64,000 bases of DNA from a virus. The first letter of the stretch is position 1. Each line of letters begins with the position of its first letter. The position numbers and the translations under genes are program-made. The stretch lies in IMG/VR virus record IMGVR_UViG_3300045988_094874, positions 1 through 64,000 of that record, one strand, 5' to 3'. This document shows, piece by piece, positions 8,907-33,438 of this stretch. The notes below the pieces were generated by a model, which worked only from the letters and a program-made list of their open reading frames with translations, did no database searches and had not been told where the DNA came from.

Positions 8907-9175
8907 GGTATATTATGATAAATAAGTATAAGCTTAAAATAGGTGATTGGGTTACGGTCACTCATAATTATCAAAATAATCCAACTAATAATGAAAAAGG
9001 AGTAGTTCTCTTTGATTATGGAGACCGGAAACTTATAGGCTTTTTCTGTGGAGGATTACGCTCAAACTCAGCTATAGAAGACTATAGAGACTCATATAAA
9101 GGGCTAAGGGCTACATGGACTATTCCCTCTCATTATTTATCTAAGAAAATAAAAACAAGAAGCAAGTTTAAGTAG
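8903..9175 (+). CDS. small paralogous protein 3 of 5
   Basis: 90 aa; KIGDWVTV...LIGFFCGG...TRSKFK. Confidence 0.45.
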   Translation: MRYIMINKYKLKIGDWVTVTHNYQNNPTNNEKGVVLFDYGDRKLIGFFCGGLRSNSAIEDYRDSYKGLRATWTIPSHYLSKKIKTRSKFK

Positions 9176-9183
9176 GTGAGACT

Positions 9184-9441
9184 ATGGCAATTTTAGAGAT
9201 AAAAGAAGGAGATACAGTCTGGGTACTGCCTAGTGAGGAAATGGGAGTTACACAGAGGATAAAGGGTAAAATCATAAGAATAAGTGAGTTTAACCTTGAA
9301 TTTCCCTATACAGTAGTTTTGGATAAAGAGCTACTACCTAACCATAATAGGGAATGGGATTTGTATGGTGAAAGCTTACAAGCAATACTTAAGCCAGATG
9401 AGATATACAAGACTAATTTTTCAAATAATAAATTTGTGTGA
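9184..9441 (+). CDS. small paralogous protein 4 of 5 (divergent)
   Basis: 85 aa; KEGDTVWVLP...NNKFV. Confidence 0.4.
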   Translation: MAILEIKEGDTVWVLPSEEMGVTQRIKGKIIRISEFNLEFPYTVVLDKELLPNHNREWDLYGESLQAILKPDEIYKTNFSNNKFV

Positions 9442-9692
9442 GGTGTAAGATGTTTGAAAAAGGACAAACAGTATTAGTCACAAGAGACTGGGAAGCTAAT
9501 GATACAGAAGGAAAACTAGGTATTATACTTGATATATGGGGTTCTGATTATAAGATTGGTTTCTTTAAGGAGCTCAGTAAGACTAACGGGGATACAAAGG
9601 CTTATCAAGAGAAATATAGCTCAATTAAATCAACTTGGTGGGTGAGAGAGTACACACTTAAGAACGCTATGACTAAAAATAAATTCAAATAA
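9438..9692 (+). CDS. small paralogous protein 5 of 5
   Basis: 84 aa; EKGQTVLVT...KIGFFKE...TKNKFK. Confidence 0.45.
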   Translation: MRCKMFEKGQTVLVTRDWEANDTEGKLGIILDIWGSDYKIGFFKELSKTNGDTKAYQEKYSSIKSTWWVREYTLKNAMTKNKFK

Positions 9693-9706: not shown

Positions 9707-9734
9707 TTGACTTTATAAAACAAAGGTGTATAAT
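9707..9734 (+). promoter_or_regulatory. early/middle promoter TTGACT-16-TATAAT with conserved upstream GCAAAAAGGTA; copy 1 of 2
   Basis: 20-nt block GCAAAAAGGTATTGACTTTA identical at 9695-9714 and 24375-24394. Confidence 0.5.
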
Positions 9735-9763: not shown

Positions 9764-11122
9764 ATGGATTACATTAAAATACCTGCAAATGCACTAGACC
9801 AAATTGAGAACAAAGCAGAGCTTGTCTTGTTTGGTCTTTATTATAGTCAAATTTCAAGAGGTCAAATGGAGAACTACTTTACACAGGAATATGTGTATAG
9901 TATTCTCAAAATGAACTCACGGACTTTCACAGCTGGTATCAAGAGCCTCTACGACAAAGAGCTTCTACGCTGGGGCTGGGGAAGACGAGACGGAGCAGAG
10001 TATTGGGCACGAAAAGTTATGCCTGACAAGCTCTATTGGGATATTGAAGAAGCAAACAGCAACTACCTAGCAATGCAGACTTGGTGGGCTGGTAAGCTCA
10101 GATTGCCTTATAATGCTCTTGTGTTCCTATCAGCTTTCAACTCACAAGCTCGAAAAGAAGGTAAGCTTGGAGAGGATTACAGCTTTGCACCAGATAAGCT
10201 AGAGAATATCGCCTCTGTGTTTAATATGAGCCGGTCTACTCTGACAAATACACTAAGCCTACTAGAAGAGCTCGGTATATTGACACGGAAACGTGTAGTA
10301 GGGCAAGGAGTATCAATCACTGTGAATGGACTATTCTTACAGCAAGAAGCTCCTACAGCACAGGAAACAGCAGAGCTTATCTACAACCTCATGCCTGAGA
10401 ACAGTCTAATTAAAGAGGCTATCACGTTTGAGAAATCAGATAACTGGTACTGTGAGTATAAGGAAACTTTGCACCCTACAAACAAGACCATGGACAGCAC
10501 TAAGCTACAGCTTGTTAAATCGTGGCTACGCTCTCTAAAACGCTCTTGTAACGATGTTTTCATGGCTCTGGTAGATATTATGCGCCCTTGTGTAAACATG
10601 ATTACAATCCCTCTGAGAAGCACACAGGAGAAGCTGGCTCTTGCTGGTGTCTCTGATGAGTTCTATGATGAGCCTATTCAAGTACAGAGTGTTTCACATG
10701 AAACATTTAGCACAGAGGACGATAGCTCAGAAGAGCCTGTGACCTCTTATATCGGCTGGTTTGAGATTATCAAGTATCAGGGCAAGAGATATGCTGAAAT
10801 CCCTACAGAGGGCACAGAAGGCAACCTACATATGTCTCTGGTAGAAATACCTGACCTTGTAGAAGACCAAGACGATTATGAGGACTGGTACAGCTATGCA
10901 GAACGAGGGGAAAGCGACCTGTGGATTAAGAAAACAGAGGAACTTGACCGAGAAATGCTAGAAGAAGAATTGAAATATCCTGGTGGTCATGGAAATGCCT
11001 TCCGTAGGAAACATGGCTTACCTGAGATTGATATGTCCTATAACCCTTATGATATTGAGGCTGATGAGGACGCTCAGGCGCTTGGGATACATTGGATAGG
11101 AGAGGAAAATTGTGACGATTAA
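9764..11122 (+). CDS. putative replication organizer/initiator (DnaD-like N-terminal region, acidic C-terminus)
   Basis: 452 aa; position ahead of primase-helicase; strong RBS GGAGAAAGGAGA. Confidence 0.3.
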   Translation: MDYIKIPANALDQIENKAELVLFGLYYSQISRGQMENYFTQEYVYSILKMNSRTFTAGIKSLYDKELLRWGWGRRDGAEYWARKVMPDKLYWDIEEANSNYLAMQTWWAGKLRLPYNALVFLSAFNSQARKEGKLGEDYSFAPDKLENIASVFNMSRSTLTNTLSLLEELGILTRKRVVGQGVSITVNGLFLQQEAPTAQETAELIYNLMPENSLIKEAITFEKSDNWYCEYKETLHPTNKTMDSTKLQLVKSWLRSLKRSCNDVFMALVDIMRPCVNMITIPLRSTQEKLALAGVSDEFYDEPIQVQSVSHETFSTEDDSSEEPVTSYIGWFEIIKYQGKRYAEIPTEGTEGNLHMSLVEIPDLVEDQDDYEDWYSYAERGESDLWIKKTEELDREMLEEELKYPGGHGNAFRRKHGLPEIDMSYNPYDIEADEDAQALGIHWIGEENCDD

Positions 11123-12812
11123 CATTTTTATTGAGGAGGTACTGGCAAAGAACTTTGGCCCTGATGATGAGGTGAAGGTGGGACTTAATTACAAGTTCAC
11201 AAATGAAAAAGACCCTAAGAAGCGATTTGCAAGGGATTTTGTAGAAACCTCAATCAGCCTGAAAGCTCTGAAAAAGTACCTAGGTTCACAGAGGAAGAAA
11301 GCTGAGCTCTATATATGTCCTACCCCTATCAAAGGTAAGAAACGCCTTAAGGAGAACGCACAGGAGACTTACCTTGTGTTCATGGATATTGATGGGGCAA
11401 GAGTACCTGAAAAGTATTTCAAGCCTAGCTATGTCTGGGAGACTAGTCCTAAAAAGTACCAAGGTGTATGGATTTTAGATAATCCGCTAACCCCCGATGA
11501 GCACGAGAAAGTGGCTAGGACACTAGTTAAGAAATATGGCTTTGACAAGACTAGTTCTGACATTGTGCACTATTACCGTGTGCCTCAGACAGTCAACCAT
11601 AAGTATAAGAGTGATTTCAATATCACAGGGTTGCAGGGTGAGGGAACAGTGTTCCGCAAGTCAGAGTTCATTAAGCGTCTAAAGAAATTCTTTAAACAAG
11701 CTAAGACAGCTGTGGCTGAGACTGGTGAGATTAAGAAAAGACGCTTTGACCTGAACGAGCTACTTGACCGCTATGACCTGACCTCTGTGTTTGATAACAA
11801 GGTAGTAGGAACTGACCGGAGTGAGTATTGCTTCCTGATTGAGCAGAAAATGATTAACCAAGGAGCAAGAAAAGAGGAGGTCTACTTTGTGCTCCTTAAC
11901 TCAGACATTGCTATGAGCAAATACAAGACTGAGAAAGCCCTACAGAAGGAAATTCACAGGGTGTTTGCCAAGCTAGAGCCTGACAAGCGTCCTAGTGACA
12001 GAATGTCTTCCTTTGGTAAGGTACACACAGGAGGAGTCACAAAGGCTAACAATGATAAAGTCAAAATCCTAGCCCTCAAAGATATTGAGGAATGGGACGG
12101 TAAAGACTTTTGGCTGATTGAAGGTCTATGGGCTAATCATTCAGTAGGTATCATTGGAGCACCTTCTAAGAGCTTTAAATCAACTCTAACACTTAACATG
12201 GCTGTGTCAGTGGCTACAGGACGAGACTTTGACGGTCACAAGGTTAAACAGGGTGGAGTTCTCATTGTGCAAGGGGAAAATAACCCTAGCATGGAAAAGG
12301 CTAAGCTTAAGACCATGGCAGGCACAGAGGACTTACCAATCTATTACACAGAAGCTCCTGTGTTCTTAGACCGTATCCATCACCTTAAGTCTTTTGTCAA
12401 GAAGAATGACATTAAGCTACTGATACTAGACCCTATGTACCTACTGTTTGGCTCTGGTGACATTAACAAGCACCAAGATGTGGCTGATAGGCTACGAGCA
12501 GTCTCAGAGTTCCGTGATGAGACAGGTTGCTCTGTGATTATAGTACATCACACACGTAAGATTGAGCGAGGAGGTAAGGTAGGTACAAGCGACTTATATG
12601 GCTCTACCTTTATCGAAGGCTGGTATGAAAGTATGATTACCTTGCAACGTAAAGGAGCTACTACCTCTAAGATGACGACTTATTTCCGTAACTTTAGGTC
12701 TGGTGATGTTTATATCCTACAGGTAGATGACCCTAGAGGTGCTAAACTACAGTACCTAAGCGACGAGGAAGCTGATTTTGGTCAGCTAATCAAGAAAGGT
12801 CCTGATAAATGA
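11112..12812 (+). CDS. primase-polymerase (prim-pol, DxD motif FMDIDG) fused to AAA_25/RepA-like helicase domain (GAPSKSFKST, ILDP Walker B)
   Basis: motifs read in the 566-aa ORF. Confidence 0.55.
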   Translation: MTINIFIEEVLAKNFGPDDEVKVGLNYKFTNEKDPKKRFARDFVETSISLKALKKYLGSQRKKAELYICPTPIKGKKRLKENAQETYLVFMDIDGARVPEKYFKPSYVWETSPKKYQGVWILDNPLTPDEHEKVARTLVKKYGFDKTSSDIVHYYRVPQTVNHKYKSDFNITGLQGEGTVFRKSEFIKRLKKFFKQAKTAVAETGEIKKRRFDLNELLDRYDLTSVFDNKVVGTDRSEYCFLIEQKMINQGARKEEVYFVLLNSDIAMSKYKTEKALQKEIHRVFAKLEPDKRPSDRMSSFGKVHTGGVTKANNDKVKILALKDIEEWDGKDFWLIEGLWANHSVGIIGAPSKSFKSTLTLNMAVSVATGRDFDGHKVKQGGVLIVQGENNPSMEKAKLKTMAGTEDLPIYYTEAPVFLDRIHHLKSFVKKNDIKLLILDPMYLLFGSGDINKHQDVADRLRAVSEFRDETGCSVIIVHHTRKIERGGKVGTSDLYGSTFIEGWYESMITLQRKGATTSKMTTYFRNFRSGDVYILQVDDPRGAKLQYLSDEEADFGQLIKKGPDK

Positions 12813-12943
12813 TAGTATATGATTATTATTGTAAGGATTGTGAAAAAGAATATGAAACTATTTTAGACCATGTTCCCTATGAGTGTGAACACTGTGGGGG
12901 ATATGAACTAACGATAACATGGAGGGCGAAAGCTTATGACTGA
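12809..12943 (+). CDS. unannotated 45-aa zinc-ribbon mini-protein (CKDC...17 aa...CEHC), coupled by ATGA overlaps to both neighbours
   Basis: manual translation MIVYDYYCKDCEKEYETILDHVPYECEHCGGYELTITWRAKAYD; below the 60-aa ORF-track cutoff. Confidence 0.4.
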   Translation: MIVYDYYCKDCEKEYETILDHVPYECEHCGGYELTITWRAKAYD

Positions 12944-13361
12944 AAAACAAGTAGTGCCAAAATATATGGCAGATTGGTTGAAATTCTGCAAAGATAATGG
13001 GTTTAAACTTTTAGAGGGAATGTCTCCCTATGCTTCTGCAATGGAGGAATACCTAGATGATTTTGAAGGTGACATTCAGGAAGTCTTAAAGTGGATTAGA
13101 CATAACCCAGATGAGTTTGCTAGGGCTTGGTTAAATGGGTATAAAGTTGCTTCCCCCACTAAGTATAAGGTGTTTATCAAAGGGTTAAAGAAGGAGAATA
13201 ACTACCTTAAGCATAATATAGGGGATGATAGTTGGTATATGGGAGCTAATATGGATGGAGAAAACCACATCCTTTGGCACACAAAAGAGGATTTAGAAAA
13301 AGCTGGATTTGTCTGGGTGTTCTCTTGTGAAGGTGTGATAGTAGAGGAGATGCAAGCATGA
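12936..13361 (+). CDS. hypothetical protein
   Basis: 141-aa ORF. Confidence 0.5.
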   Translation: MTEKQVVPKYMADWLKFCKDNGFKLLEGMSPYASAMEEYLDDFEGDIQEVLKWIRHNPDEFARAWLNGYKVASPTKYKVFIKGLKKENNYLKHNIGDDSWYMGANMDGENHILWHTKEDLEKAGFVWVFSCEGVIVEEMQA

Positions 13362-13735
13362 TACCGAAATTTCGAGCATGGCACAACAAATATAAAGAAA
13401 TGGGGAAGGTTAAACGGATACGATTTGATGATGACGGAAACATAAGCAATGTATTATTTAAAGGAAACCTGTTTGGAGTTAATGTAAAGATTAATGAAAT
13501 TGAACTTATGCAAGCAACAGGACTCAAAGACAAGAATGGTAAGGAAATTTTTGAGGGGGATATTCTTCATGGAAATGATGGAGAAGACTTCTGGGATGTT
13601 GTTAAATATGACAAAAATGATGCTGTCTGGATAAGAGAGTCTGTATATTGTTCTTCAATGCTTTATCTTTATGAGAATACTGAAACACCTAGTATTGTAG
13701 GTAACATATATGAAAATCCAGAAGTGCTTAGATAA
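13358..13735 (+). CDS. YopX-family phage protein
   Basis: N-terminal KFRAWH and central ATGLKDKNGKEIFEGDI typical of the YopX family. Confidence 0.55.
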   Translation: MIPKFRAWHNKYKEMGKVKRIRFDDDGNISNVLFKGNLFGVNVKINEIELMQATGLKDKNGKEIFEGDILHGNDGEDFWDVVKYDKNDAVWIRESVYCSSMLYLYENTETPSIVGNIYENPEVLR

Positions 13736-13748
13736 AAGGAGAAAGAAA

Positions 13749-15203
13749 ATGAAGAATAAAGTGAAATTTACAGCAGGAATGATTGTTTTAGCAGGGCTCT
13801 TAGTTGCCCCTAATGTATTGGCAAGTGAGGTTGCTAAAGAGGGTACTCAGATTAAGGTCACAGAGCCTGAAATCACTTACAGCTCAGAAGCGGCTGAAAC
13901 TTATGTCAACAAAGACTTGACATATCATACAGAAATCCCTGATGAGGTAGAGATTAATGAAGGTGATACACTCACTTACACTCTACCAGAACAGCTACAG
14001 TGGACAACTACTCAAGAATTTGATGTGACTAGTCCTGAGGGCAATGTAGTAGGACGTGCAGTTGCTTCTAATGAAACTCAGTCAGTTACCACAACGTTTA
14101 ACAACTACTTTAGTGAGCACCCTCTTGACAAGAGCTTTAACATGACACTCAAGACCATGTGGAAGAAAGAAGTAGTCACAGAGCGTGAAAAGTATGACCT
14201 CAATTTCAATGGCACTATTGTGAAACAGGCAGAGGTTAAGCCTCAGACTCCTGCAAACTCACAGGAGATTGTTGCCAAGTGGGGCTGGCAAGACAAAGAT
14301 GACCCTTCACTGGTTCAGTGGGGAGGACGAGTAAACTTTGTCAAACACCACCTCACAGATGTTAATGTATCTGATACATGGGACAGCAATAACGAGTACG
14401 TTGAAGGCTCTATGCGTATCTTTGAGCTCTCATCAGCAGAGCCTTGGGTAGGGATTAGAGAAATTCCTCTCTCAGAGGTTAATGTTCAGTTCTACAAGAA
14501 CGGGTTTAAGTTTAGCCTACCTGATGTGACTAACATTATCAGTGTTGAATACAAGACACGCTTGAAGAACAAGCTACAAAACCCTGTTAATGTATTGAGC
14601 TTTACAGCTATGGGTCAAGAGTATAGCTTTGAACGTGAAATCACAGTGGCTAATGCTACAGGTACAGCTAAGGGCAAGGTTCGACCTTTCACTTATGACG
14701 TACCACCAGCTCCTGTGTATGATATTCCAGAGTTTGAGGGTGGTGTAGTTCCTAATGACCCGCCTGTGCTGGATAAACCAGAGCTTAATATTGATGATAT
14801 TGAGCAAACACCACCAGCACCAGTCCATGAGCTACCAGAGTGGCAAGGAGGTACTACACCGCTAGACCCTCCTACAGTGGATAAGCCTGAATGGAATGGA
14901 GGCGTAGTGCCTAATGAACCCCCAGTATTAGACATTCCAGAGATTAACATTGATGATGTACCAGTTTTACCCCCTGCTCCTGTGCATGAGTTACCAGAAC
15001 TGGAAGTCCCTGATGTACCTACAGAAGACCCTAAGACACCTCCAACACAAGAGGAATTACCTCCTGCTAGCGCTGATGTTAAGTCACAGGATAAGAAGGT
15101 CTTGCCTAAGACAGGCTCAAAAGACAATATTATGTACTTAGTGATTGGAGCTATTGTAGGTCTGATTGCTTCTCTACTAATCCCATTTAGCAAGCGTAAA
15201 TAA
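13749..15203 (+). CDS. LPXTG cell-wall-anchored surface protein: signal peptide, about 280-aa adhesin-like domain, Pro-rich PPAPVxELPE repeats, LPKTG + hydrophobic segment + KRK tail
   Basis: start set at RBS-preceded ATG 13749 (track ORF starts 13710 inside yopX); sortase signal LPKTGSKDNIMYLVIGAIVGLIASLLIPFSKRK. Confidence 0.7.
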   Translation: MKNKVKFTAGMIVLAGLLVAPNVLASEVAKEGTQIKVTEPEITYSSEAAETYVNKDLTYHTEIPDEVEINEGDTLTYTLPEQLQWTTTQEFDVTSPEGNVVGRAVASNETQSVTTTFNNYFSEHPLDKSFNMTLKTMWKKEVVTEREKYDLNFNGTIVKQAEVKPQTPANSQEIVAKWGWQDKDDPSLVQWGGRVNFVKHHLTDVNVSDTWDSNNEYVEGSMRIFELSSAEPWVGIREIPLSEVNVQFYKNGFKFSLPDVTNIISVEYKTRLKNKLQNPVNVLSFTAMGQEYSFEREITVANATGTAKGKVRPFTYDVPPAPVYDIPEFEGGVVPNDPPVLDKPELNIDDIEQTPPAPVHELPEWQGGTTPLDPPTVDKPEWNGGVVPNEPPVLDIPEINIDDVPVLPPAPVHELPELEVPDVPTEDPKTPPTQEELPPASADVKSQDKKVLPKTGSKDNIMYLVIGAIVGLIASLLIPFSKRK

Positions 15204-15233: not shown

Positions 15234-15455
15234 ATGAAGAAATTTATGGCTTGGGTGCTAGGAACAATAATCACTTTACTGTTCTGTGTACCTGCTAGTT
15301 TTGCAATGTATATCGCTATGGGAAGCCTAATCGCTCCTGAGCTGGTTGAGGTAAATCCTGTGATTGGAGTTATCAGCTTTTTCTCAGCAGTAGTATTCTA
15401 CTTTGCAGGAGCTATGATGGGCACAGGAGCTTATAAAACGCTATTAGGACGGTAA
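15234..15455 (+). CDS. small membrane protein (two TM helices)
   Basis: 73-aa hydrophobic ORF. Confidence 0.45.
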   Translation: MKKFMAWVLGTIITLLFCVPASFAMYIAMGSLIAPELVEVNPVIGVISFFSAVVFYFAGAMMGTGAYKTLLGR

Positions 15456-15456
15456 T

Positions 15457-18400
15457 ATGAAGAAAAGAGATTTAATGGTACTAGCCAAACGGCTATCATC
15501 TGTAGAGCTCTTTTCCCTTGATATTGAAACCACAGGACTTGATAGGTACAGGGATAAAATAGTCTCTGTGCAAATCAGCTATGACTTTAACGGTAAGGAA
15601 TATGACCATTTCATTTGGTGGGAGCAGTACACTAAAGAGGAATGGCAAGCCTTTCTGAAAGCCATAGCCAAACTGAATATGGTCACACACAATGGTAAGT
15701 TTGATATTCTGTTCCTATATGTTCACACAGGGGTATTCATGGAGCTTTACATGGATACACAGGTGCTGGCTCATGTATCAGGTGAAGTAGAGCTTGGACT
15801 AAAACCTCTTGTGGTAAAATACTTTGGTGATGATTATGACGTGAGCAAGGAAATCAAAGTCTCTGGTAAGCGAGACAGCCTGACTACACTCAAAGGATTT
15901 ATCACAAAGTATTTCACAGGAACTGAGCTTGTCATGGAACAGACTACTAAGGAAAATGCTGAGGCTTTCTTATCAGGGCTAAAGACCAAGGCACAGAAGA
16001 ACGCCTGTGAACTGATTGACAATGAGGACGGAACTTTTGACGTAACCCGAAAATGGGTACACAAAGACCGAACAGCCATGAATAAATTAGCTCAGCAGGT
16101 CTATGATGAGCTTGAAGGTGGTATACTTATCTCAGGAATGTCCGTAGAAGCCACTGACAGGCTCTGTAAGGCGTTTGAAAGTCTTGATAGTACAATCATA
16201 CTAGAGACGCTAAAAGATGTGACACAGGAGCTTGTAGAGGCTAATAACAAGAAGCTAGTGGTCTATGGAAAGAAGGACACACGATATACACTTAAGTTAG
16301 TGCCAATATTCAAGAAAATCATCAAGAAATACAAGATGATTAAGGTCTATAAGCATGAAATGAGAGCTTACAAAGCCTATTCTATCATTGAGAAACAGGG
16401 TATCTATATTGACCCTAATAGACACAAGGTGAGTGAACAGTTGAGAGCTGAGTACACAGAGTACCTTGAGGAGCTCAATGAGGTGGCTGAAATCAACTGG
16501 AACTCAACACAGCAGGTAGCTAAGGTCTTATTTGGTAAGAAGGGCGCTCCTGTGATTGTGGATGGAAAAGAGGTTGGAAAGTCCTTGGGACTGAAACCTG
16601 TGAAGAAGAGTGCCTCAGGAAATCCAAGCACAGATGATGAAACTCTTGTGGAGCTATCCGCTGTGAGTGAGGTTGCTAAGAACCTGAGAGAGTATAAGAG
16701 ACTGACTAAGCTGGATACATTTATCAAGTCATGGGACGAGATAGCTGTGGACGGTCAAATTCACCCTAGCTTTAATATCACAGCTAGGACAGGAAGGACA
16801 ACCTGCTCAAACCCTAATCTTCAGCAAGTCCCACAAAATAGTAATGTACGTGGAATTATCTATGCTAGACCGGGCTACAAGATTATTGAGTGCTTTAGTG
16901 GAGACACAGAGGTACTCACAGAGAAGGGATGGCAGAGATTTGATAGCCTTGATAAGGGAATTAAACTGGCACAATATGATTGTGAGAGTGAAGAGATTTC
17001 CTTTGAACAGCCTTTACGATATATCCACCAAGAGAATAGACCCACCTTCCACTATGAAGATAGGAATACTAGTGTATTTGCTACAGCCAATCATAATGTA
17101 CTGACTAGGTATACTAACCGAGTAACTAGGAAACATCCTTTTAAGGAGACTAACTTTAGCAGAGCCAACCAGTTCATAAATGCAGGCTTCTATACTACTA
17201 ATTACAAGTATTCTGATAAATACACAAGATTTCTAGCAATGTTTATTTCTGATGGTTATATGGACAACTATGGTAATATTTCTTTTGGTTTCAGAAAGCA
17301 GAGAAAGATTGATAGGTGTAAGCATGTTCTGGAAGAATTAGGTATTTCCTTTAAATTAAACCAGTATACAAGGAAAGGAAATGCTAAAGACACTATGTTC
17401 AGGATTGGTAAGGTCATGACACAGTTTGTGAATGAATACTCAGAGAGCTACAAGGTATTATCTACCAAAACAGCCTTTGAGCTTAACCCTGCTGTATACT
17501 TAGAAGAGGCTCAGTATTGGGATGGTACTCCTATAGTTAAGGGCAAGAGTGTGAGATTTGTATCTACACAGAAGAAAACACTTGAAGTCATGCAACTTAT
17601 GGGTGTATTCTGTGGGATTAAAATGGTTATTCACAGAGATAATCATAGGGATAAAGACTGTCATAAGTATGCTTATTATGTAAATTACAAACCAAAAGGA
17701 GATAGATTTACATGCATGAATGAGCAAGGGGTCGACTTCTCAAATCCTACTTACCAAGATGTTTACTGTATCACAATGCCACTTGGGACTTGTGTAATAA
17801 GACACAAGGGTAAGGTATCTATCCAATCCCAATGTGACCTGAGCCAAGCTGAGCTTCGAGTAGCCGCTGACTTTTCAGGAGATAAGAACATGATACATGC
17901 ATATCAGTCTGGAAGTGACTTGCATAGTAAGACTACAGAGATGATGTTTGGAAATCTTGAAGGATTAGACCATGATGAGCTTAAGAGAAAACGGACTCAA
18001 GCGAAGTCATGTTTCAGTGGAGATACTGAAATACTGACAGACAAAGGGTTTGTGCCATTTAATATGTATGATGGAGTAACTAGGGTAGCTCAGTATAATA
18101 TTGAGTCACAAGAAATCAGTTACACAGAACCGTTAGACTTTAGAATGATACCAAACCAGAAAATCTGTGTATTTGAGAATGAAAACACCTCACTAAAACT
18201 GACACCAAATCATGAGTGTATTATTCAAGTACAGAATACTAGAAAATACATGAAAAAGATTCCTTTTGAAGAGCTGGCAGGTCATGGGCAATCTAAGTAT
18301 GCTTGGGTAAATGCTGGTTATTACAACTATGATAAAAATAAGTTCATAGATGATAAATTGACAAGATTTGTAGCCTGCTTTGTTGCAGACGGAAGTTACA

Positions 18401-19503
18401 GTTCTTCAAAGAACGCTATCAGATTTGGGTTTACAAAGAAACGCAAGATTGATAGGTTTAGGTGGTTGCTAAAAGAGCTAGGAGTATCCTGTGAGCCTAA
18501 AATACAAGGTAAGTTAAAGGTAAGTTTCTTTACACTAAGTGACTTTAAATTACTAAACCTTGTAAAGAGATACTGTACCGAGGATAAAACTCTTCTTGAG
18601 CCTTCTCTTACTGAGCTAAACCCTCTTGTGTACCTTGAGGAAGCAGGTCATTGGGACGGTCATATAAATAAGTTTGGTCTAATACTAGTATCCTCAACAA
18701 ATAAGGAAACTTTAGATAAAATGCAGATAATGGCGATACAATCAGGTGTCCGCGCAAGACTGGCTCTAAGAGAGGAAGCTCATGATAATGTAAGTAATAC
18801 TTGGGAGTTGTCATATAATCTTGCTAAAAAGCCTCTGAGTAGGTTTGAAAGTAGGGATATTGACACACGAACTCACCACAAGACTAATTACAATGTCTAC
18901 TGTGTAACCGTTCCTGAACATAATATTGTTATACGCCATAATGGAAAAGTATCAATACAAGGAAACTGTAACTTCGGCTTTTTATATGGTATGCAAGCAA
19001 AATCGTTCGTGAATTACGCAAAAACCTATGGATTGAATTTATCACTCAAGGAAGCTGAGGAGTTCCGAAGTAAGTTCTTTGAAGCCTATCCGACTTTACT
19101 GGTATGGCACAGAAGGAACATTGACTTTGCTAGTAATAAAGGATATGTTGAAGCTCCGTCTGGCAGGAAACGTTTCTTGAGAGATATTTGGTCTGATGAT
19201 TGGGCTAAGAAGTCTTCTGCTGAAAGACAGTCACTTAACTCAGCTGTACAAGGCTTTGCTAGTGACTGTTGTATCTCAGCTCTAGCGGATATAGTTTTCT
19301 CAGATGAGCTAGACCATTCAAGAGCAAGAGTATTAGGCTCTGTGCATGACGCTATATTAGTAGAGGCTAAGGAAGACTATGCAGAAGAAGCCTCTCAGAT
19401 AGTAAAGAACCACATGGAGAACCCTTCCTTGTTTAAGCTACATAAGCTCTGTGTTCCAATGGTGGCTGATGTAGAAATCGGCAAGGGCTGGGGTATTCAC
19501 TAA
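15457..19503 (+). CDS. family A DNA polymerase with 3'-5' exonuclease domain, interrupted by two inteins (1348-aa precursor, about 715-aa mature)
   Basis: Exo I LDIETTGL; motif A reconstituted as KIIE/CDLSQAELR; motif AKS/CNFGFLYG reconstituted across intein 2. Confidence 0.8.
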   Translation: MKKRDLMVLAKRLSSVELFSLDIETTGLDRYRDKIVSVQISYDFNGKEYDHFIWWEQYTKEEWQAFLKAIAKLNMVTHNGKFDILFLYVHTGVFMELYMDTQVLAHVSGEVELGLKPLVVKYFGDDYDVSKEIKVSGKRDSLTTLKGFITKYFTGTELVMEQTTKENAEAFLSGLKTKAQKNACELIDNEDGTFDVTRKWVHKDRTAMNKLAQQVYDELEGGILISGMSVEATDRLCKAFESLDSTIILETLKDVTQELVEANNKKLVVYGKKDTRYTLKLVPIFKKIIKKYKMIKVYKHEMRAYKAYSIIEKQGIYIDPNRHKVSEQLRAEYTEYLEELNEVAEINWNSTQQVAKVLFGKKGAPVIVDGKEVGKSLGLKPVKKSASGNPSTDDETLVELSAVSEVAKNLREYKRLTKLDTFIKSWDEIAVDGQIHPSFNITARTGRTTCSNPNLQQVPQNSNVRGIIYARPGYKIIECFSGDTEVLTEKGWQRFDSLDKGIKLAQYDCESEEISFEQPLRYIHQENRPTFHYEDRNTSVFATANHNVLTRYTNRVTRKHPFKETNFSRANQFINAGFYTTNYKYSDKYTRFLAMFISDGYMDNYGNISFGFRKQRKIDRCKHVLEELGISFKLNQYTRKGNAKDTMFRIGKVMTQFVNEYSESYKVLSTKTAFELNPAVYLEEAQYWDGTPIVKGKSVRFVSTQKKTLEVMQLMGVFCGIKMVIHRDNHRDKDCHKYAYYVNYKPKGDRFTCMNEQGVDFSNPTYQDVYCITMPLGTCVIRHKGKVSIQSQCDLSQAELRVAADFSGDKNMIHAYQSGSDLHSKTTEMMFGNLEGLDHDELKRKRTQAKSCFSGDTEILTDKGFVPFNMYDGVTRVAQYNIESQEISYTEPLDFRMIPNQKICVFENENTSLKLTPNHECIIQVQNTRKYMKKIPFEELAGHGQSKYAWVNAGYYNYDKNKFIDDKLTRFVACFVADGSYSSSKNAIRFGFTKKRKIDRFRWLLKELGVSCEPKIQGKLKVSFFTLSDFKLLNLVKRYCTEDKTLLEPSLTELNPLVYLEEAGHWDGHINKFGLILVSSTNKETLDKMQIMAIQSGVRARLALREEAHDNVSNTWELSYNLAKKPLSRFESRDIDTRTHHKTNYNVYCVTVPEHNIVIRHNGKVSIQGNCNFGFLYGMQAKSFVNYAKTYGLNLSLKEAEEFRSKFFEAYPTLLVWHRRNIDFASNKGYVEAPSGRKRFLRDIWSDDWAKKSSAERQSLNSAVQGFASDCCISALADIVFSDELDHSRARVLGSVHDAILVEAKEDYAEEASQIVKNHMENPSLFKLHKLCVPMVADVEIGKGWGIH
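16891..17832 (+). mobile_element. LAGLIDADG intein 1 in PolA motif A (314 aa; Cys1 CFSGDTEVL; ends SIQSQ; +1 Cys)
   Basis: Hint N-terminal block, LAGLIDADG-like AMFISDGYMD, insertion immediately before the catalytic Asp of motif A. Confidence 0.7.
18010..18966 (+). mobile_element. LAGLIDADG intein 2 in PolA NFGxxYG motif (319 aa; Cys1 CFSGDTEIL; ends SIQGN; +1 Cys); paralogous to intein 1
   Basis: Hint block, ACFVADGSY LAGLIDADG motif, flanking AKS / CNFGFLYG extein. Confidence 0.7.
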
Positions 19504-24446: not shown

Positions 24447-26291
24447 ATGAAACTAAAATCATTGTCTACGGTACGCCTGCATCAAATGACCGTGTTGTTC
24501 GGAAAATCTGGTTCAGGCAAGGCAGAATATGTAGAAAACAAAATCTACACCCCTAGTGGACCTAAACGCTTTGGTGACTTAAAAGTCGGTGATTATGTAT
24601 TTGACCGATTTGGTAAGCCTACAAAAGTAGTTGGAACATTCCCACAAGGAGAGATTGACGCATATGAAGTAACTCTAGCAGATGGACGTACAGTAATCTG
24701 TAATGATGAGCACATCTGGACCACAGTAACCTCACGAAATAGTCTTAAGGATTATACATTACGTGAAATTATTGACACAGGTGTTACTATCAAAAAGGGA
24801 GGGATTACTCGTAACCGATTTTATATTCCTACCCATAGCTACGTCCAATTCAAGGAGCAAGAAGTTAAGGTACACCCTTATCTTGTAGGAACTTTTATTG
24901 CAAATGGAGCTTTACGCTCTAAACCTCTCACACTATGCTCCGATGACATTTTTGTGGTAGAAAAAGTTGCTAAGATTTTAGGGGCTACTTACAAGAAGAA
25001 CTCAGATAAGAATTTTAGCTATACTTTTCGAAAAGAAGGACACATTATCAAAACGGAAGAGGTATTCACAGAGTTGCTTGGTAAGTATTCTCATGAGAAG
25101 TTTATTCCTAAGGAATACCTATTTAATAGTGTAGAAGTTCGTAGAGAGCTCCTCCAAGGACTAATGGATAATGATGGTTCTATAACACCTAAGCATTCTG
25201 GAGCACACCCTTCATATTACACAGTAAGCCCTAGGCTTGCAGATGATGTAGTATTTCTTGTAAGAAGTCTTGGGTATGAGACTTATGTATATGTAGATGA
25301 ACGTGAAGGGAAACGTACAGGATATGACATTGGACTTAGAGTACCTCCACGTGAACGTAAATCACTATTCACATTGCCTAGGAAGAAAGAACGTTCTCTA
25401 GCTGTTGAGGGCAACTGCTTAAGACGACGCTATGAAATGGTTGGTATTGCTAAAGTTACAAAGCTTAATAAGAAGTTACCTATGATGTGTATTAAGGTAG
25501 ATAATCCTGAAAGCTTGTACTTGTCTAATGAGTTTGTAGTAACTCACAATACTTCCGTAATCAACTCACTTCCGGGTAAAACTCTCATCATTGACACTGA
25601 CCGTGGGTTAGCTTCTGTAAGCCCCACTGATAATGTTGATGTAGCTGAGTGTTACAACTGGGAAGACATTCTTGAAGCATTTGCAATCGCTAAGACAGGC
25701 GATTATGAAAGCATTGCTGTTGACCACTTTACAAATGTCCAAGAAATGTGCTACAAACATATTATGGAAAAATACAAAGTGGATAAAATGCAAATCCAGC
25801 ATTATGGAGAAGCTTCTCCATTGCTCAAAGGACTTGTTGACCAGCTGGTCGGTTTTAGCTATGATGGTAAGAACGTCCTTGTACTTGCACAGGAAATGAG
25901 TATTAACGTTGAGGAAGATGAGGGAGAAGATGTACCACGGGTAATCTGCCCTAACGTATCCCCAGCTGTTCGCTCTTACTTGCAAGCCTCTGCACGGATT
26001 GTAGCCCATACACAGAAGGAAAACAAGAAGACCTTTGAAAATGGCAAGAAATCCATTGAGGAAGTTTATATTGCTCAGGTAGCAGGTAACCCTATCTTGA
26101 CTACTAAAGTTACACGCAAGCCGGGAATTGAAATTCCTAACAAGATTAAGAACCCTACGTGGGCTAAGCTCACTAAACTTATCACAGGAGAAACCGCTAA
26201 GAAGGCTAAGCCTGCTAAAGAGGAAGAAGCCCCTGTGACAGAAGAAAAACCAAAACGCAAACGTGCTACTAAGAAATCAGAAGAAAAATAA
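24447..26291 (+). CDS. Sak4-like RecA-fold ATPase interrupted by an intein in the Walker A loop (614-aa precursor, 271-aa extein, basic K/E-rich C-terminal tail)
   Basis: GKSGSGK / TSV... reconstitutes Walker A GKSGSGKTS after removal of the 343-aa insert; Walker B LIIDTD. Confidence 0.65.
   Translation: MKLKSLSTVRLHQMTVLFGKSGSGKAEYVENKIYTPSGPKRFGDLKVGDYVFDRFGKPTKVVGTFPQGEIDAYEVTLADGRTVICNDEHIWTTVTSRNSLKDYTLREIIDTGVTIKKGGITRNRFYIPTHSYVQFKEQEVKVHPYLVGTFIANGALRSKPLTLCSDDIFVVEKVAKILGATYKKNSDKNFSYTFRKEGHIIKTEEVFTELLGKYSHEKFIPKEYLFNSVEVRRELLQGLMDNDGSITPKHSGAHPSYYTVSPRLADDVVFLVRSLGYETYVYVDEREGKRTGYDIGLRVPPRERKSLFTLPRKKERSLAVEGNCLRRRYEMVGIAKVTKLNKKLPMMCIKVDNPESLYLSNEFVVTHNTSVINSLPGKTLIIDTDRGLASVSPTDNVDVAECYNWEDILEAFAIAKTGDYESIAVDHFTNVQEMCYKHIMEKYKVDKMQIQHYGEASPLLKGLVDQLVGFSYDGKNVLVLAQEMSINVEEDEGEDVPRVICPNVSPAVRSYLQASARIVAHTQKENKKTFENGKKSIEEVYIAQVAGNPILTTKVTRKPGIEIPNKIKNPTWAKLTKLITGETAKKAKPAKEEEAPVTEEKPKRKRATKKSEEK
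24522..25550 (+). mobile_element. LAGLIDADG intein with Ala1 N-terminus (AEYVEN...), C-terminal VVTHN, +1 Thr
   Basis: LAGLIDADG motifs LVGTFIANGA and LQGLMDNDGS; canonical HN terminus; insertion within the P-loop. Confidence 0.6.
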
Positions 26292-29705: not shown

Positions 29706-31717
29706 TACTCTACTCCTCCAGCAAGGTCTCCAGCGTTGAGCGTGTTAGTTGTTCGGATAGCCCTGTTTCCATTAGGTGTTCCACCAAATACGTTAATATT
29801 ACCTGTAGCAATATGACGGTCAGTCTTAAGGCTACCAGCAAGAATGTCAGTACCTCCAACTTCCCAAGCACCTGAGTTTTTAAGGTCTTCGAGAAGCTTC
29901 TTCACAGCTGTCTCTAGGCTGTTATACTTATTCTGTAGTGACCTAAACTCTGAACGCTCTACCTTAGTAGCCAAGTCACCGAACGTTGGTAGGTCAGTAG
30001 TATTCACAGAGAAGGTAGTACCATTAAGGCTCAAGCCGTTTCCTGCATAATACTTAGTATCATTATCAGCTCTTCCTTCTAGGGCAGTTACCTTGGTGCT
30101 AAGTCCTTGTACAGTAGTATTAAGCCTGTTAATACCTTCTGTGACATCGGTATTGCTTGGTACGTCTAGTGAGCTTGCTCCCCAAGAACGAGGACCTGTT
30201 CCCTCATAGAAACATACACCAGCAATCTGTAGCACAGTATTGTTAGGTACATCAGCCTTCATACGTCCTAAAAGAATTTTAGGTGTAAATGGTGCTGTAT
30301 TATATACTTGGAAGCTTACTGTGTATAGAGCCCAGTTAGCATTTACTTTCACAGTAACATCACCATCAATATTTGTGTTCATACCTCCTGTGGAGCTATA
30401 AACAATACAAACTTTTGCAGGTGAGAATAGGTGATTACCAAAAGTAATCTCACTAGTTGCCTTAGCAAAGAAGCTCACTGTGTACCAAGTTCCCGGATTG
30501 AGAGGATAGCCTAGCTGAGCACCAAAGGTATCAAATGTATCAGTTCCTGTGCCTCTATTTTTCTCACTGATAGCTAGTCCTAAGTAGTTCCCATTAGGAG
30601 CTCCATAGGTGTTAGCAGAGCCGTCTCTAGTGCCCTTAATGAGGTTATCAGCACCAACAAGTAAAGTACCAGAAGGCTCAGGAATACTATCAGTCACAGG
30701 CTTGGTAGTCAATGTCAGGTAAGTAAATCTCACAGGGAAGGTCTTAATATCAATACCGTCAATACGAACATTAAGGGCATTTACTTTAAGGTCTTTATTA
30801 GCAAGAGTCCATGTGTAGGTAATCTCATTACCTTTAGCCTGCATAGACTGTTTACCTGCAAGCCAGCCTACATACCAGTTAGTCGGATTAGCCATGTCGT
30901 AGGCTTCCAGAGCAAGCTGAGCAGTAGCAGGGATAGCTGAGATTGTATTAACATCAAACTTGGCTTTAATATAAAGCTTGTCTCCTACAGAGAAACCTAA
31001 TTCTCCTAAAGACTTCTTATCTGTTAAATAATACAATGGAGCAGAATAATAACCACTACCTTCGTCACGTTTACCTACCCAGCCGTTACCATGGTATTTG
31101 TTGATGTAGTTCACAAGAGGAACTTCAACAGCCTTTGTCTCTAACGCTGGAATTTTATCAATGTTAGCCTTTACAGCAGGGTCAAGTTTAACTTCCCAAT
31201 CCTTAGTGGCTGTCTGTGTACTAACAATCCCGTCTTTACCGATTACTGACACAGAGGCTACACCTTTGGGGGCTTTAAGCTCACCAATTTGGCGCTCTAC
31301 ATTCTCTAGGCGCTCATTAGTAGGTACTTTTGTGCTGTCTAGTGACACAGTGTAATCATTATTAGTCTTAGCTACCAGAATACCATTGCCGGGCTTCACA
31401 GTGGTGATAGTGTCTCTATCCTGTGTGACTACAGCAGAGATAGTTCCATCAGGTGAAATAGTGATACCTTGACCTGCTTTATAAGTTTTACCTCCATTAC
31501 CAGAGCCTGTACCATTAAGCTTAATCATAGCGTCCCTAGCACGGTTTAAAATCCATACATCTTGATTGCTATCCATGTAAGCATGGTTGCGGTCAGCATA
31601 GAATGGGTCGGGCTTCTCAGACTTGACAATTAGCCAAGTACCTTCATCAGGAAGGCAATCTTGGCAGTAGTCACGTCCATCATTACAATCACACTCATAG
31701 CATTTGTTACAAGTCAT
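29705..31717 (-). CDS. tail fibre / receptor-binding protein candidate with N-terminal Cys cluster
   Basis: 670 aa; MTCNKCYECDCNDGRDYCQDC; beta-rich, Gly/Asn-rich C-terminal region. Confidence 0.45.
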   Translation of the reverse strand: MTCNKCYECDCNDGRDYCQDCLPDEGTWLIVKSEKPDPFYADRNHAYMDSNQDVWILNRARDAMIKLNGTGSGNGGKTYKAGQGITISPDGTISAVVTQDRDTITTVKPGNGILVAKTNNDYTVSLDSTKVPTNERLENVERQIGELKAPKGVASVSVIGKDGIVSTQTATKDWEVKLDPAVKANIDKIPALETKAVEVPLVNYINKYHGNGWVGKRDEGSGYYSAPLYYLTDKKSLGELGFSVGDKLYIKAKFDVNTISAIPATAQLALEAYDMANPTNWYVGWLAGKQSMQAKGNEITYTWTLANKDLKVNALNVRIDGIDIKTFPVRFTYLTLTTKPVTDSIPEPSGTLLVGADNLIKGTRDGSANTYGAPNGNYLGLAISEKNRGTGTDTFDTFGAQLGYPLNPGTWYTVSFFAKATSEITFGNHLFSPAKVCIVYSSTGGMNTNIDGDVTVKVNANWALYTVSFQVYNTAPFTPKILLGRMKADVPNNTVLQIAGVCFYEGTGPRSWGASSLDVPSNTDVTEGINRLNTTVQGLSTKVTALEGRADNDTKYYAGNGLSLNGTTFSVNTTDLPTFGDLATKVERSEFRSLQNKYNSLETAVKKLLEDLKNSGAWEVGGTDILAGSLKTDRHIATGNINVFGGTPNGNRAIRTTNTLNAGDLAGGVE

Positions 31718-33438
31718 TAGTTAGTTTCCTTTCCTCCTGTGCTGTAGTAGTTCACACAGGTTCTAATCATACCTTTACCTAACAGGCTATCAGTTCCCTC
31801 TACAAACTCAGAGGTAGTCTGCTTATTAGGCAATAAAGTATATCCCTTACCATTATACCATACTGAGTCAGGAGTAGGGGCACAGAAAGTGCTCTTTTCA
31901 TGAACAGCTGGTGCTATAGGTTTATTAGTTGCAGTGTCAATAAAGGTTGTTACTGTGATATAGTCAAGTCCCTTAGTCTTAGCAAGCTGAGCCTCTTTTC
32001 CTACAGGAGGACACACAGAGCAGGCTGTCTTACACTCTCTTAGAGGGGCTAGGGTACAGCTACCACAGTTCAGCTCATTCAGGAAGCCTGTGCTCTCATG
32101 AATGTTGATGTAAGAAGGCTCAGGAGGCAGTTCTTTCAGCTTAGCCTGATAAGGGGCTACTGGCATTGAACTTATCACAGGAGCTGTATTCAGGTTAAAT
32201 CCTGATACATTCTTCTTGTAGCTTCCTACAGTAAACCTGATAACATCTACAAATACTCCCCACACAATAGCCTGAGGACCTTCTCCAAGAGGATTTCTTG
32301 TGTAGTTACTTAGTCTGCCATTCTGTGCTGATACATAAGAGCCATTGATAGGTACAGTATATGCTGTATCAACAGTGAAATAAGTACCCTGACCTGACTC
32401 AGCACCAAATGGTTGCAGATTTAGGATAGCTGTTTCCCTGTTTGTAGGCTTAACTTCCTTACCATCAGCAGTAAAGAAACGTGTCTCCACAGTAAGCTCA
32501 GAGCTATATTGTTCATTGCTACCTTCTGTGTGAATAGTGATTTGTTTATATGGATTAGTAGGTACTCCAATAATCACAGCCTTCTTAGGGTGCTCAGTTG
32601 ACACAAGAGTAATTCTCATCTTGATAGATGAAATCTCTTTCCCTGATAAAATAGTAGTTGCATTTGCAAAGTCTACCGTCATTTCCTCACGCTCTTTTAA
32701 ATAGGTATAGACCAATTCATTTGAGGTAAAGGTAGAAATGTCAGGGATAGGATTAACACTTGCAGGCTCTTTAGTATCATTAGCCAGCTTACGTCCTCTA
32801 ATTGTCTTAGCCATTACAGCATTAGGAGAAATTTGAAGGTACTGACTAGCTACTGCCTGAGGGAAACCTTCCTTGGTCAAGTTAGCTTGTAGGATAGAGA
32901 TACGGTTTGCATACTCTTGCCTATCTTGCTGGAACTTAGCTAAAGCACCTTTATTATACTCATTAACAAAGGAAGCTTGCTCATCATACTCTCTCTTAAG
33001 CTTATTGTTATAAGCAATAGCGTCAGACACAGTAGAGTTAGAAGCAGTGACCAGCTTATTAGCATTTCTTGTAATCTCATTGATACGTCCACACAGAACC
33101 CCATTAGCTGTATTAAGAGCCTCTAGGTTCTTTTTATTTGCCTTAATCCGGTCATTGAGTATGTTAGTTAGTCCAAGGGTATGGCACAGTACGTTTATAA
33201 AGTTGTTTACAAACATAAATACATTACTAAACCCTTTAGAGCTAAGCTCCCTCATGTCACAGGGCATACCTGTTTCAAACATAGGAGCTATAGGCTCTAG
33301 TAGGTCTTTGTGTAAGGCTTTAACCTTGTCACAGGTATCGTCACAGGTCTTGCCAATCTCTATACATTTAGGTTTGCAACCATTATCGCATTGACACTCC
33401 TTGAACTTGCACTTCATACAAGTTACACAGTCTGCCAT
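31717..33438 (-). CDS. tail fibre protein with Cys-rich N-terminus and coiled coil
   Basis: 573 aa; MADCVTCMKCKFKECQCDNGCKPKC. Confidence 0.45.
   Translation of the reverse strand: MADCVTCMKCKFKECQCDNGCKPKCIEIGKTCDDTCDKVKALHKDLLEPIAPMFETGMPCDMRELSSKGFSNVFMFVNNFINVLCHTLGLTNILNDRIKANKKNLEALNTANGVLCGRINEITRNANKLVTASNSTVSDAIAYNNKLKREYDEQASFVNEYNKGALAKFQQDRQEYANRISILQANLTKEGFPQAVASQYLQISPNAVMAKTIRGRKLANDTKEPASVNPIPDISTFTSNELVYTYLKEREEMTVDFANATTILSGKEISSIKMRITLVSTEHPKKAVIIGVPTNPYKQITIHTEGSNEQYSSELTVETRFFTADGKEVKPTNRETAILNLQPFGAESGQGTYFTVDTAYTVPINGSYVSAQNGRLSNYTRNPLGEGPQAIVWGVFVDVIRFTVGSYKKNVSGFNLNTAPVISSMPVAPYQAKLKELPPEPSYINIHESTGFLNELNCGSCTLAPLRECKTACSVCPPVGKEAQLAKTKGLDYITVTTFIDTATNKPIAPAVHEKSTFCAPTPDSVWYNGKGYTLLPNKQTTSEFVEGTDSLLGKGMIRTCVNYYSTGGKETN

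Follow-up and report, generated by a model that had tools for sequence, protein, structure and literature searches.

A putative sortase-anchored adhesin of the MSCRAMM class encoded in the replication module of an uncultured ~64-kb phage lineage

Results and discussion

An LPXTG surface-protein gene in a phage genome

The DNA considered here is a viral stretch of 64,000 nucleotides (positions 1 to 64,000 of the IMG/VR record IMGVR_UViG_3300045988_094874; hereafter the window), and the element under study is a gene at positions 13749-15203 whose predicted product combines a signal peptide, an adhesin-like head, a proline-rich stalk and an LPXTG cell-wall sorting signal (hereafter the LPXTG gene and the LPXTG protein). 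Its domain matches and predicted fold indicate that the product is probably a genuine sortase-A substrate of the MSCRAMM (microbial surface components recognizing adhesive matrix molecules)/Cna adhesin class, and host sortase should fasten this bacterial-type adhesin to the wall of the infected cell. The phage is apparently a non-integrating one infecting oral streptococci, and we found that purifying selection keeps the gene across the phage family. The gene and the segments of its product are laid out as follows:

13749..15203, + strand: coding sequence of the LPXTG surface protein, 484 residues, complete including the stop (open reading frame and domain matches)
13736..13741, + strand: ribosome-binding site AAGGAG, seven bases 5' of the ATG (read from the sequence)
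13749..13823, + strand: predicted signal peptide, residues 1-25 (hydropathy profile; basic n-region, hydrophobic core and VLA followed by SE)
13824..14243, + strand: first IgG-like adhesin subdomain, Big_8, MSCRAMM N2-like (Pfam, phmmer to SdrE 5ihw/5wta, structural model)
14244..14684, + strand: second IgG-like subdomain, Collagen_bind of the Cna N2 type (Pfam, invariant columns, structural model)
14685..15098, + strand: Pro-rich region, presumably wall-spanning, with three SIALI-17-type repeats (NCBIfam NF043031, composition)
15102..15200, + strand: cell-wall sorting signal comprising LPKTG (15102-15116), a hydrophobic segment and SKRK (PF00746, TIGR01167)

The open reading frame (ORF), which runs from the ATG at 13749 to the stop codon at 15201-15203, was confirmed and is far beyond chance expectation; it is separated by 13 bases from the stop of the preceding yopX gene and by 30 bases from a 73-residue ORF downstream. 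Its GC content (0.435) matches that of its flanks (0.43 in the primase gene). A longer version of the frame, starting at 13710, was rejected because it would overlap yopX and the N-termini of most homologues disagree with it. A frame or sequence artefact was likewise ruled out by the intact ORF, the strong ribosome-binding site and matches to three Pfam models.

A Kyte-Doolittle scan for hydrophobic segments recovered only two in the LPXTG protein, at residues ~5-25 and ~461-480. The former belongs to the predicted signal peptide, with a basic n-region (MKNKVK) and a hydrophobic core (residues 7-21) in the N-terminal segment MKNKVKFTAGMIVLAGLLVAPNVLA, after which SE follows; this NVLA-SEV/AEV junction is kept in homologues. 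The latter lies in the region matched by the Gram_pos_anchor model PF00746 (residues 445-484; E 2e-6; 27.9 bits versus a cut-off of 20) and by the NCBIfam LPXTG_anchor model TIGR01167 (23.9 bits versus a cut-off of 15.9). Here LPKTG (residues 452-456) is followed by the hydrophobic segment IMYLVIGAIVGLIASLLIPF and the SKRK tail, with residues 459-483 forming a helix in the AlphaFold2 model, and L452, P453, T455 and G456 show no variation among 33 of 33 diverse homologues. The tail after LPKTG, by contrast, comes in two unrelated versions in the 64-kb lineage, …DNIMYLVIGAIVGLIASLLIPFSKRK and …DNGILVNIAFGIIFIVACIKAYFTKKD (proteins P0003 and P0019 versus the window protein). No other sorting signal was detected among all 145 ORFs of at least 60 residues in the window, leaving the LPXTG protein as its sole sortase substrate.

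Between the head and the anchor, residues 313-450 are 24% proline and contain PPAPV motifs at 319, 355 and 408. The SIALI-17 repeat model NF043031 of NCBIfam matches three stretches in this stalk (55.8 bits versus a cut-off of 30), which is disordered in the AlphaFold2 prediction. The repeats are seen at the protein level only, with no nucleotide-level tandem repeats found in the region by Tandem Repeats Finder. Their number varies among relatives, the homologues being 430-512 residues long, and one of these, a 63%-identical protein of S. panodentis, is named SIALI-17 repeat-containing surface protein. An earlier reading of the DNA, made without database searches (the sequence-only reading), had proposed a signal peptide, an adhesin-like N-terminal domain, three Pro-rich repeats and an ending of LPKTG, hydrophobic helix and KRK tail. 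All four are borne out: the signal peptide by hydropathy (basic n-region and hydrophobic core) and the conserved junction, the adhesin domain by Big_8 and Collagen_bind, the repeats by the three SIALI-17 stretches with their three PPAPV motifs, and the ending by both anchor models, hydropathy and the invariant motif.

The head has the fold of two-domain MSCRAMM ligand-binding regions

Pfam recognizes Big_8 at residues 58-147 (E 3e-13) and Collagen_bind at residues 173-279 (E 3e-11). An AlphaFold2 model of the protein, built from 33 homologues, is all-beta and confident over residues 26-308, with block values of the predicted local distance difference test score (pLDDT) of ~70-91 (70-88 in the first subdomain and 78-91 in the second). 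A Foldseek search of the PDB with this model matched solely the two-domain ligand-binding regions of MSCRAMM adhesins, namely SdrC, SdrE, SdrD, SdrG, ClfA, ClfB, Bbp, FnBPA, UafA, Cna (2f6a), Cnm (8jl8) and RspB, with E-values of 7e-15 to 1e-11 over ~300-330 aligned columns at 11-17% identity; the probability was 1.00 for SdrC, SdrE, SdrG, ClfA, Cna, Cnm and RspB. The comparison with MSCRAMM folds that the sequence-only reading had proposed for the adhesin region thus matches it to the Sdr, Clf, Cna and Cnm proteins and leaves Cna_B unmatched. Cna_B repeats are also without a Pfam match in the LPXTG protein, where the SIALI-17 Pro-rich stalk stands in their place; MSCRAMMs without B repeats exist, so that the missing Cna_B does not exclude membership of the wider class.

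The assignment of the first subdomain is also seen by sequence comparison alone: in phmmer its VTTTFNNYF falls on ITYTFTDYVD of SdrE, the MSCRAMM signature, the full TYTFTDYVD-like motif being VTTTFNNYFSEHP aligned with SdrE ITYTFTDYVDKYE. Within this motif T115, F117, N118, Y120 and F121 show no variation. The invariant residues of the second subdomain are K177, D209 and N281, whose motifs we take to resemble the Cna isopeptide triad K176/D209/N293, with no significant alignment to Cna obtained: the full-length profile gave no PDB match, the single domain gave only a chance match, and the domain profile reached RspB at E 0.22, among spurious matches.

The gene is conserved and under purifying selection in the phage family

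At least 18 contigs in IMG/VR belong to the same lineage; they are 62.3-64.7 kb in length, and many come from human oral samples. A search for homologues in related phage genomes, which the sequence-only reading had called for, returned same-slot copies both within this lineage and beyond it. All 15 of the lineage genomes whose loci extend far enough carry the LPXTG gene in the same slot, the order being primase-helicase, a 44-residue Zn-ribbon ORF, a variable DUF1642/YopX slot, the LPXTG gene, a 114-residue ORF, a 73-residue ORF and PolA. We computed pairwise ratios of nonsynonymous to synonymous substitution rates (dN/dS) for 12 genomes. The ratio is 0.10 for the whole LPXTG gene, 0.07 for the first binding subdomain and 0.05 for the second, to be compared with 0.085 for the N-terminal part of PolA and 0.023 for the primase-helicase. 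It rises to 0.58 in the C-terminal sorting tail, on account of the two alternative tail versions, while the LPxTG motif itself stays fixed. The divergence of the adhesin (A) region equals the genome average (p-distance 0.043).

Mantel tests over 13-15 genomes found no correlation between adhesin-domain distances and those of any of 13 other genes, adjacent ones included (all non-significant). The absence of linkage even between adjacent genes implies that the lineage recombines freely, and with free recombination the presence of the gene in every one of the 15 genomes reflects selection rather than linkage. In sister clades, whose primases are 48-52% identical to that of the lineage and whose contigs measure 50-64 kb, a 30-34%-identical homologue lies between the primase and PolA in 31 of 57 loci. 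A signal peptide and an LPxTG motif are both present in the homologues included in the alignment, which come from 55-60-kb contigs. This distribution suggests that the LPXTG gene is old in the family, and accessory.

Homologues in temperate streptococcal phages and exchange of the head cassette

The sole nucleotide match in the phage collection is 'Campylobacter phage CJLB-5' (MW057932.1, locus L001; QPB07534), at 87% over 1.1 kb. Both integrase and repressor genes are present in this record, and Streptococcus genomes contain prophages (L106, L107 and L023) that are collinear with it at 80-98% (tblastx); it also codes for a sortase substrate of the Gram-positive type, and it is almost certainly a mislabelled Streptococcus phage. 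The homology that links the window to the prophages starts at 13700 or 13812 and ends at 14942, inside the repeats, reaching 92% nucleotide identity over 13812-14733. These sharp limits suggest that the adhesin head is exchanged as a cassette, whereas the stalk and the anchor are lineage-specific. A search of 185,579 species-representative genomes yielded four matches, all in prophage-like DNA (two from uncultured Streptococcus, one each from S. panodentis and S. sanguinis).

More distant homologues (33-35% identity) occur in temperate phages, including S. salivarius YMC-2011, Javan534-539, Javan371 (S. parasanguinis), Javan311 (S. mitis) and SA-TP2, where they are annotated variously as 'LPXTG cell wall anchor domain-containing protein', 'WapA precursor', 'peptidoglycan bound protein' and, wrongly, 'sialidase'. 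Taken with the closer relatives, the temperate-phage genes are true homologues with 33-81% amino-acid identity and the same domain order; their phages possess an integrase and a repressor, whereas the window phage, a member of an uncultured ~64-kb family, has neither detectably. Hence, judging from these homologies, an LPXTG gene in a phage is less unprecedented than the sequence-only reading implied, its homologues having already been annotated in temperate streptococcal phages. In the literature searched we found neither a functional study of these homologues nor a paper on this class of LPXTG genes in phages.

The genomic contexts of the homologues are recurrent. In each of these phages the gene occupies the early strand, amid replication genes: in YMC-2011 (Ssal_phage00024) it precedes Gam, Sak4 and the helicase, in Javan311 it sits between two helicase genes, and in Javan371 it is ~1.5 kb downstream of the replication initiator gene. 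This repeated placement in replication modules argues that the protein acts in lytic development and not in the repressed lysogen.

The operon and its neighbouring genes

Around the LPXTG gene we identified the following features:

9707..9734, + strand: sigma-70-like promoter match TTGACT-16-TATAAT (11 of 12 positions), the best consensus match upstream of the operon containing the LPXTG gene
11112..12812, + strand: RepB-type primase with AAA_25 helicase, the conserved upstream anchor of the slot (Pfam)
12936..13361, + strand: DUF1642 gene in the variable slot upstream of the adhesin gene (Pfam)
13358..13735, + strand: yopX, immediately upstream of the LPXTG gene (PF09643, E 7e-26)
15234..15455, + strand: 73-residue ORF with two predicted membrane segments, conserved across the lineage in its position just 5' of polA
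15457..19503, + strand: family A DNA polymerase with a 3'-5' exonuclease domain and two intein-like inserts, the downstream anchor of the slot (Pfam)

The primase-helicase is 98-99% identical within the lineage. DUF1642 is only 48-75% identical among lineage members and missing in some, while several temperate phage contigs (L015, L016 and L018) likewise have yopX directly 5' of the homologue. The 73-residue membrane ORF has no family match in Pfam, NCBIfam, PHROGs or PADLOC. The sequence-only reading had placed the LPXTG gene between yopX and polA within a replication module. Its adjacency to yopX holds, as does the module, with primase-helicase, DUF1642, YopX, the LPXTG gene, the small membrane ORF and an intein-split PolA in that order; its adjacency to polA does not, the 73-residue ORF (15234-15455) intervening.

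Consensus scans found no + strand promoter or terminator comparable to the 9707-9734 site between that site and polA, and no flanking + strand promoter- or terminator-like site at the LPXTG gene or at its YMC-2011 and CJLB-5 homologues, such scans being weak evidence. From the gene order and these scans we infer that the LPXTG gene is co-transcribed with the replication genes, as an early or middle gene.

Several further observations concern this region. In relatives a 114-residue ORF (L003 11459-11803 and its equivalents) lies between the LPXTG gene and the 73-residue ORF; it is deleted in the window, leaving the 30-base spacer between 15203 and 15234. Both intein-like inserts of PolA begin with CFSGDTE, with a Pfam LAGLIDADG_3 match inside the first, and the PolA match breaks at differing places in relatives, suggesting variable intein content. 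Five small ORFs of 75-90 residues, arranged in tandem immediately 5' of the replication operon (8443-9692, + strand), appear to be a paralogous array, with similar endings (…RSEFK, …RSKFN, …RSKFK, …NNKFV and …KNKFK) and common internal motifs, e.g. LIGFPL.SPFGWYD.

The phage genome and its lifestyle

The window is a ~64-kb siphovirus-like genome of two arms, an early arm on the + strand (1-28145) and a late arm on the - strand (28159-64000). Besides the genes already named, its replication and nucleotide genes include an exonuclease, a dUTPase, a Sak4-like ATPase with an intein and a RuvC-like resolvase; packaging and structure are represented by terminase, portal, tape measure and tail lysin, and lysis by a GH25 endolysin and a glucosaminidase. 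PHROG and Pfam lifestyle scans, covering every ORF of at least 240 residues and many smaller ones, detected no integrase, recombinase, partition protein or CI-type repressor. The lineage genomes are 62-65 kb throughout, none is embedded in a bacterial contig, and the 185,579 species-representative genomes contain no copy of the lineage. The description of the phage in the sequence-only reading as looking virulent therefore stands within the scope of these scans, there being no integrase, recombinase or CI-type repressor in those scans and no occurrence inside a bacterial contig. Family scans of the window ORFs found no sortase either, so that the host enzyme would be needed.

Neither the capsid nor the portal protein has a tblastn match in 50,697 phage records, and the best match of the primase is only 31%, to Lactococcus phage KSY1; this suggests that the phage belongs to an uncultured group. 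An Rfam scan of the whole window returned only a tRNA-Cys (62026-62098, - strand), which shares 23 bases with the 3' end of an ORF (62076-62798, - strand) that has an HNH_3 endonuclease domain. The AAA_24/Sak4-like ATPase (24447-26291, + strand) with its LAGLIDADG/Hom_end insert is probably a second intein-bearing gene, and its PHROG 'terminase' matches are likely caused by the insert. Downstream of the endolysin, two large proteins (31717-33438 and 33925-36168, both - strand) show domains of streptococcal adhesins, GbpC (E 9e-11) and BspA variable (E 4e-16); having Cys-rich N-termini and neither signal peptide nor sorting signal, they look like virion fibres built on host-adhesin lectin folds. 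Near the start of the early arm, an ORF-poor stretch of ~2.6 kb (909-3540; GC ~0.36-0.37; no Rfam match) could hold the genome end, the origin or early promoters. It is followed by a 71-residue ORF (3540-3755, + strand) with an N-terminal hydrophobic segment ending in LLLC, resembling a signal peptide or weak lipobox; this ORF, without a family match, would be a more conventional choice if a small envelope or exclusion protein were sought. The salivary single-virus genome 92-C13, the pneumococcal AP200 prophage and a paper on collagen-binding proteins of S. parasanguinis were found to be irrelevant to the gene.

Proposed function and alternative explanations

The most likely role of the LPXTG protein, in our view, is sortase-anchored display that alters the adhesion or aggregation of the infected cell, a statement whose timing, anchoring, ligand and benefit we infer and in which, taken whole, our confidence is evenly balanced. 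The gene would be transcribed with the DNA-replication genes of the phage and its product exported by Sec through the N-terminal signal peptide, the C-terminal hydrophobic segment and KRK tail holding it in the membrane. Host sortase A would then cut LPKTG between T and G, attaching the protein to lipid II and thereafter covalently to peptidoglycan. The LPXTG sorting pathway itself, with its Sec export, membrane retention, sortase A cleavage and lipid II intermediate, is well established. The Pro-rich repeats would carry the two-domain head out through the wall of the infected cell, where it may bind a conserved protein ligand, for which collagen, salivary pellicle and other surface proteins, of host or bacterial origin, are candidates, as with WapA, Cnm and Cna. 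An infected cell altered in this way in its adhesion or aggregation would, on lysis, free its progeny in a dense attached streptococcal community and not in flowing saliva. WapA and Cnm are sortase-anchored proteins that mediate pellicle or collagen attachment (bioRxiv 10.1101/2021.06.09.447825). We favour adhesion or aggregation because the fold is that of adhesins with peptide ligands, because the binding domains are under purifying selection with a divergence no higher than the genome average, and because they do not track variation in the tail proteins. The sequence-only reading had named superinfection exclusion, receptor masking, cell aggregation and immune decoy as possible roles of a protein displayed on the infected cell wall and not on the virion.

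Several observations weigh against this role. On reading of the sequence, the signal peptide of the LPXTG protein lacks a YSIRK motif. The top fold matches are binders of fibrinogen or complement factors, and the Pfam name 'collagen binding' does not establish ligand specificity. The gene is dispensable at the family level, 26 of the 57 sister-clade loci being without it; furthermore, L052 (7913-8128) retains a mere 70-residue remnant, which is counted within the 31 loci with a homologue, and L069 has lost the gene within a clade that normally carries it. The early or middle timing is a deduction from gene order and weak consensus scans, a wall-anchored protein made in a short latent period may cover the cell surface only partly, and a missing integrase does not prove a strictly lytic lifestyle.

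The main rival is superinfection exclusion or protection of progeny, whereby the wall protein, through the masking of a wall receptor or the capture of tail proteins, would prevent the same phage or its competitors from adsorbing or passing in their DNA, and might in addition save progeny from loss on lysed-cell debris; T5 Llp, Ltp and the LPXTG surface-exclusion proteins of conjugative elements offer analogues. An early or middle operon position, as proposed here, suits exclusion genes, the gene is common to temperate and non-integrating phages of the same hosts, where competition occurs, and a cell-wall protein, CwpV, can confer phage resistance (PMC4737114). We nevertheless consider exclusion unlikely. 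The LPXTG protein matches no exclusion or defence family in PADLOC or PHROG, and its fold places it with adhesins that take peptide ligands. Diversification would be expected at an arms-race interface, whereas the A-domain is under strong purifying selection and diverges no more than the genome average; its comparison with candidate tail and receptor-binding proteins (Mantel r -0.26 to 0.09) gives no support for allele-specific exclusion. The masking of wall-polysaccharide receptors by a newly anchored protein also seems physically implausible. The gene might alternatively be a passenger, i.e. a lysogenic-conversion adhesin of temperate streptococcal phages that was gained by recombination and is idle in lytic infection. 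This would fit the A-domain cassette, with up to 92% nucleotide identity to prophage copies and its sharp boundaries at 13700/13812 and 14942, the prophage location of all relatives of at least 60% identity in bacterial genomes and the absence of the gene from many sister-clade loci. We regard it as improbable in the face of universal presence in the lineage despite free recombination, the low dN/dS of the gene with its invariant sorting motif, and the 30-34%-identical homologues in the same sister-clade slot, which imply long residence. Moreover, the temperate-phage copies too belong to an early or replication operon instead of occupying a moron site; no promoter or terminator specific to them was detected, and expression from a repressed prophage is therefore not expected.

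Should the phage not be strictly virulent and instead persist in a carrier state, as a pseudolysogen or as an unrecognised episome, the adhesin could serve the long-term infected cell. An adhesin is most obviously useful to a cell that survives, and about half of the early-region ORFs are without a recognisable function; but a complete lysis cassette is present, the two arms are arranged as is typical of lytic siphoviruses, the genome was never found in a bacterial contig, and the ORF scans detected none of the genes for integration, recombination, partition or repression, making persistence very improbable. The remaining possibility, that a bacterial gene was misassembled onto a phage contig or that the protein is a structural component of the virion, is effectively refuted. 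The 'Campylobacter phage' label of the closest public record does show that mislabelling exists nearby, yet the same junctions recur in at least 18 independent metagenomic contigs from different samples, the genes are tightly packed and the GC content matches the flanks; a signal peptide and LPXTG signal, for their part, are incompatible with cytoplasmic virion assembly.

Beyond display of an adhesin as such, we tentatively suggest, with less than even confidence, that lytic oral-streptococcal phages and their temperate recombination partners deliberately re-dress the infected cell with a sortase-anchored adhesin from the replication operon. This suggestion jointly covers two versions: in one, the doomed cell would be stuck to pellicle, tissue or neighbours so that the burst meets dense hosts; in the other, the protein would be the first case of sortase-dependent phage superinfection exclusion.

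Relationship to known systems and biological significance

The closest likeness is to the Cna- and Sdr/Clf-type MSCRAMMs (S. aureus Cna, SdrE, SdrG and ClfA; S. mutans Cnm and WapA), which share the predicted signal peptide, the tandem subdomains, the signature motif, the stalk and LPXTG. The window adhesin differs in being encoded by a phage in a replication operon, in lacking Cna_B and in its mere 11-17% identity to the solved adhesins. In size and layout, with ~450-480 residues, a Pro-rich stalk and no B repeats, it resembles WapA, and the Javan371 homologue carries the annotation 'WapA precursor'. Among phage-borne wall-anchored surface proteins, SasX/SesI of the staphylococcal phiSPbeta-like prophages is a parallel; SasX promotes aggregation and nasal colonisation. 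No homology to it was detected, and it is a lysogenic-conversion factor of a large prophage, as opposed to a gene in the lytic operon of a phage without integrase. Features of a SasX-type moron are wanting in the window, where neither integrase or repressor nor a promoter or terminator of the gene's own was detected, although the temperate phages bearing homologues do have integrase and repressor. As a phage-borne surface protein, SasX has been linked to colonisation (PMC7047976).

Mobile elements other than phages likewise decorate their cells by way of the host sortase, as do the LPxTG proteins of TnGBS and PrgA/Sec10 and PrgB/Asc10 of pCF10, the surface-exclusion and aggregation proteins of that element. 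They have other domains, Pfam detecting only Big_8 and Collagen_bind here, and the carrier here is a phage. LPXTG proteins of conjugative elements exclude competitors or aggregate cells (PMC4053933). T5 Llp, Ltp of TP-J34 and the lactococcal Sie2009 are small lipoproteins or membrane proteins, in contrast to the 48-kDa sortase-type adhesin described here. All three are phage-encoded proteins targeted to the cell envelope, and some are made early in infection.

The protein class, phage-borne wall-anchored proteins such as SasX and the temperate-phage homologues are already known. What appears to be undescribed in the literature searched is the selected conservation of such a gene in an apparently non-integrating family, its consistent placement in replication operons across unrelated phages and the exchange of its cassette by temperate phages with non-integrating ones. 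Surface proteins borne by phages are commonly regarded as cargo of lysogenic conversion, to the benefit of the bacterium. In the present case an adhesin from a virulence-associated class is retained by purifying selection in a family without any sign of lysogeny, and its operon should be active in lytic growth alone. Display of the protein, if it occurs, would mean that lytic phages in the human mouth modify how their hosts adhere in the course of infection. Biofilm ecology and the spread of phages in flowing saliva would both be affected, and so would the reading of 'adhesin' genes in metagenomes.

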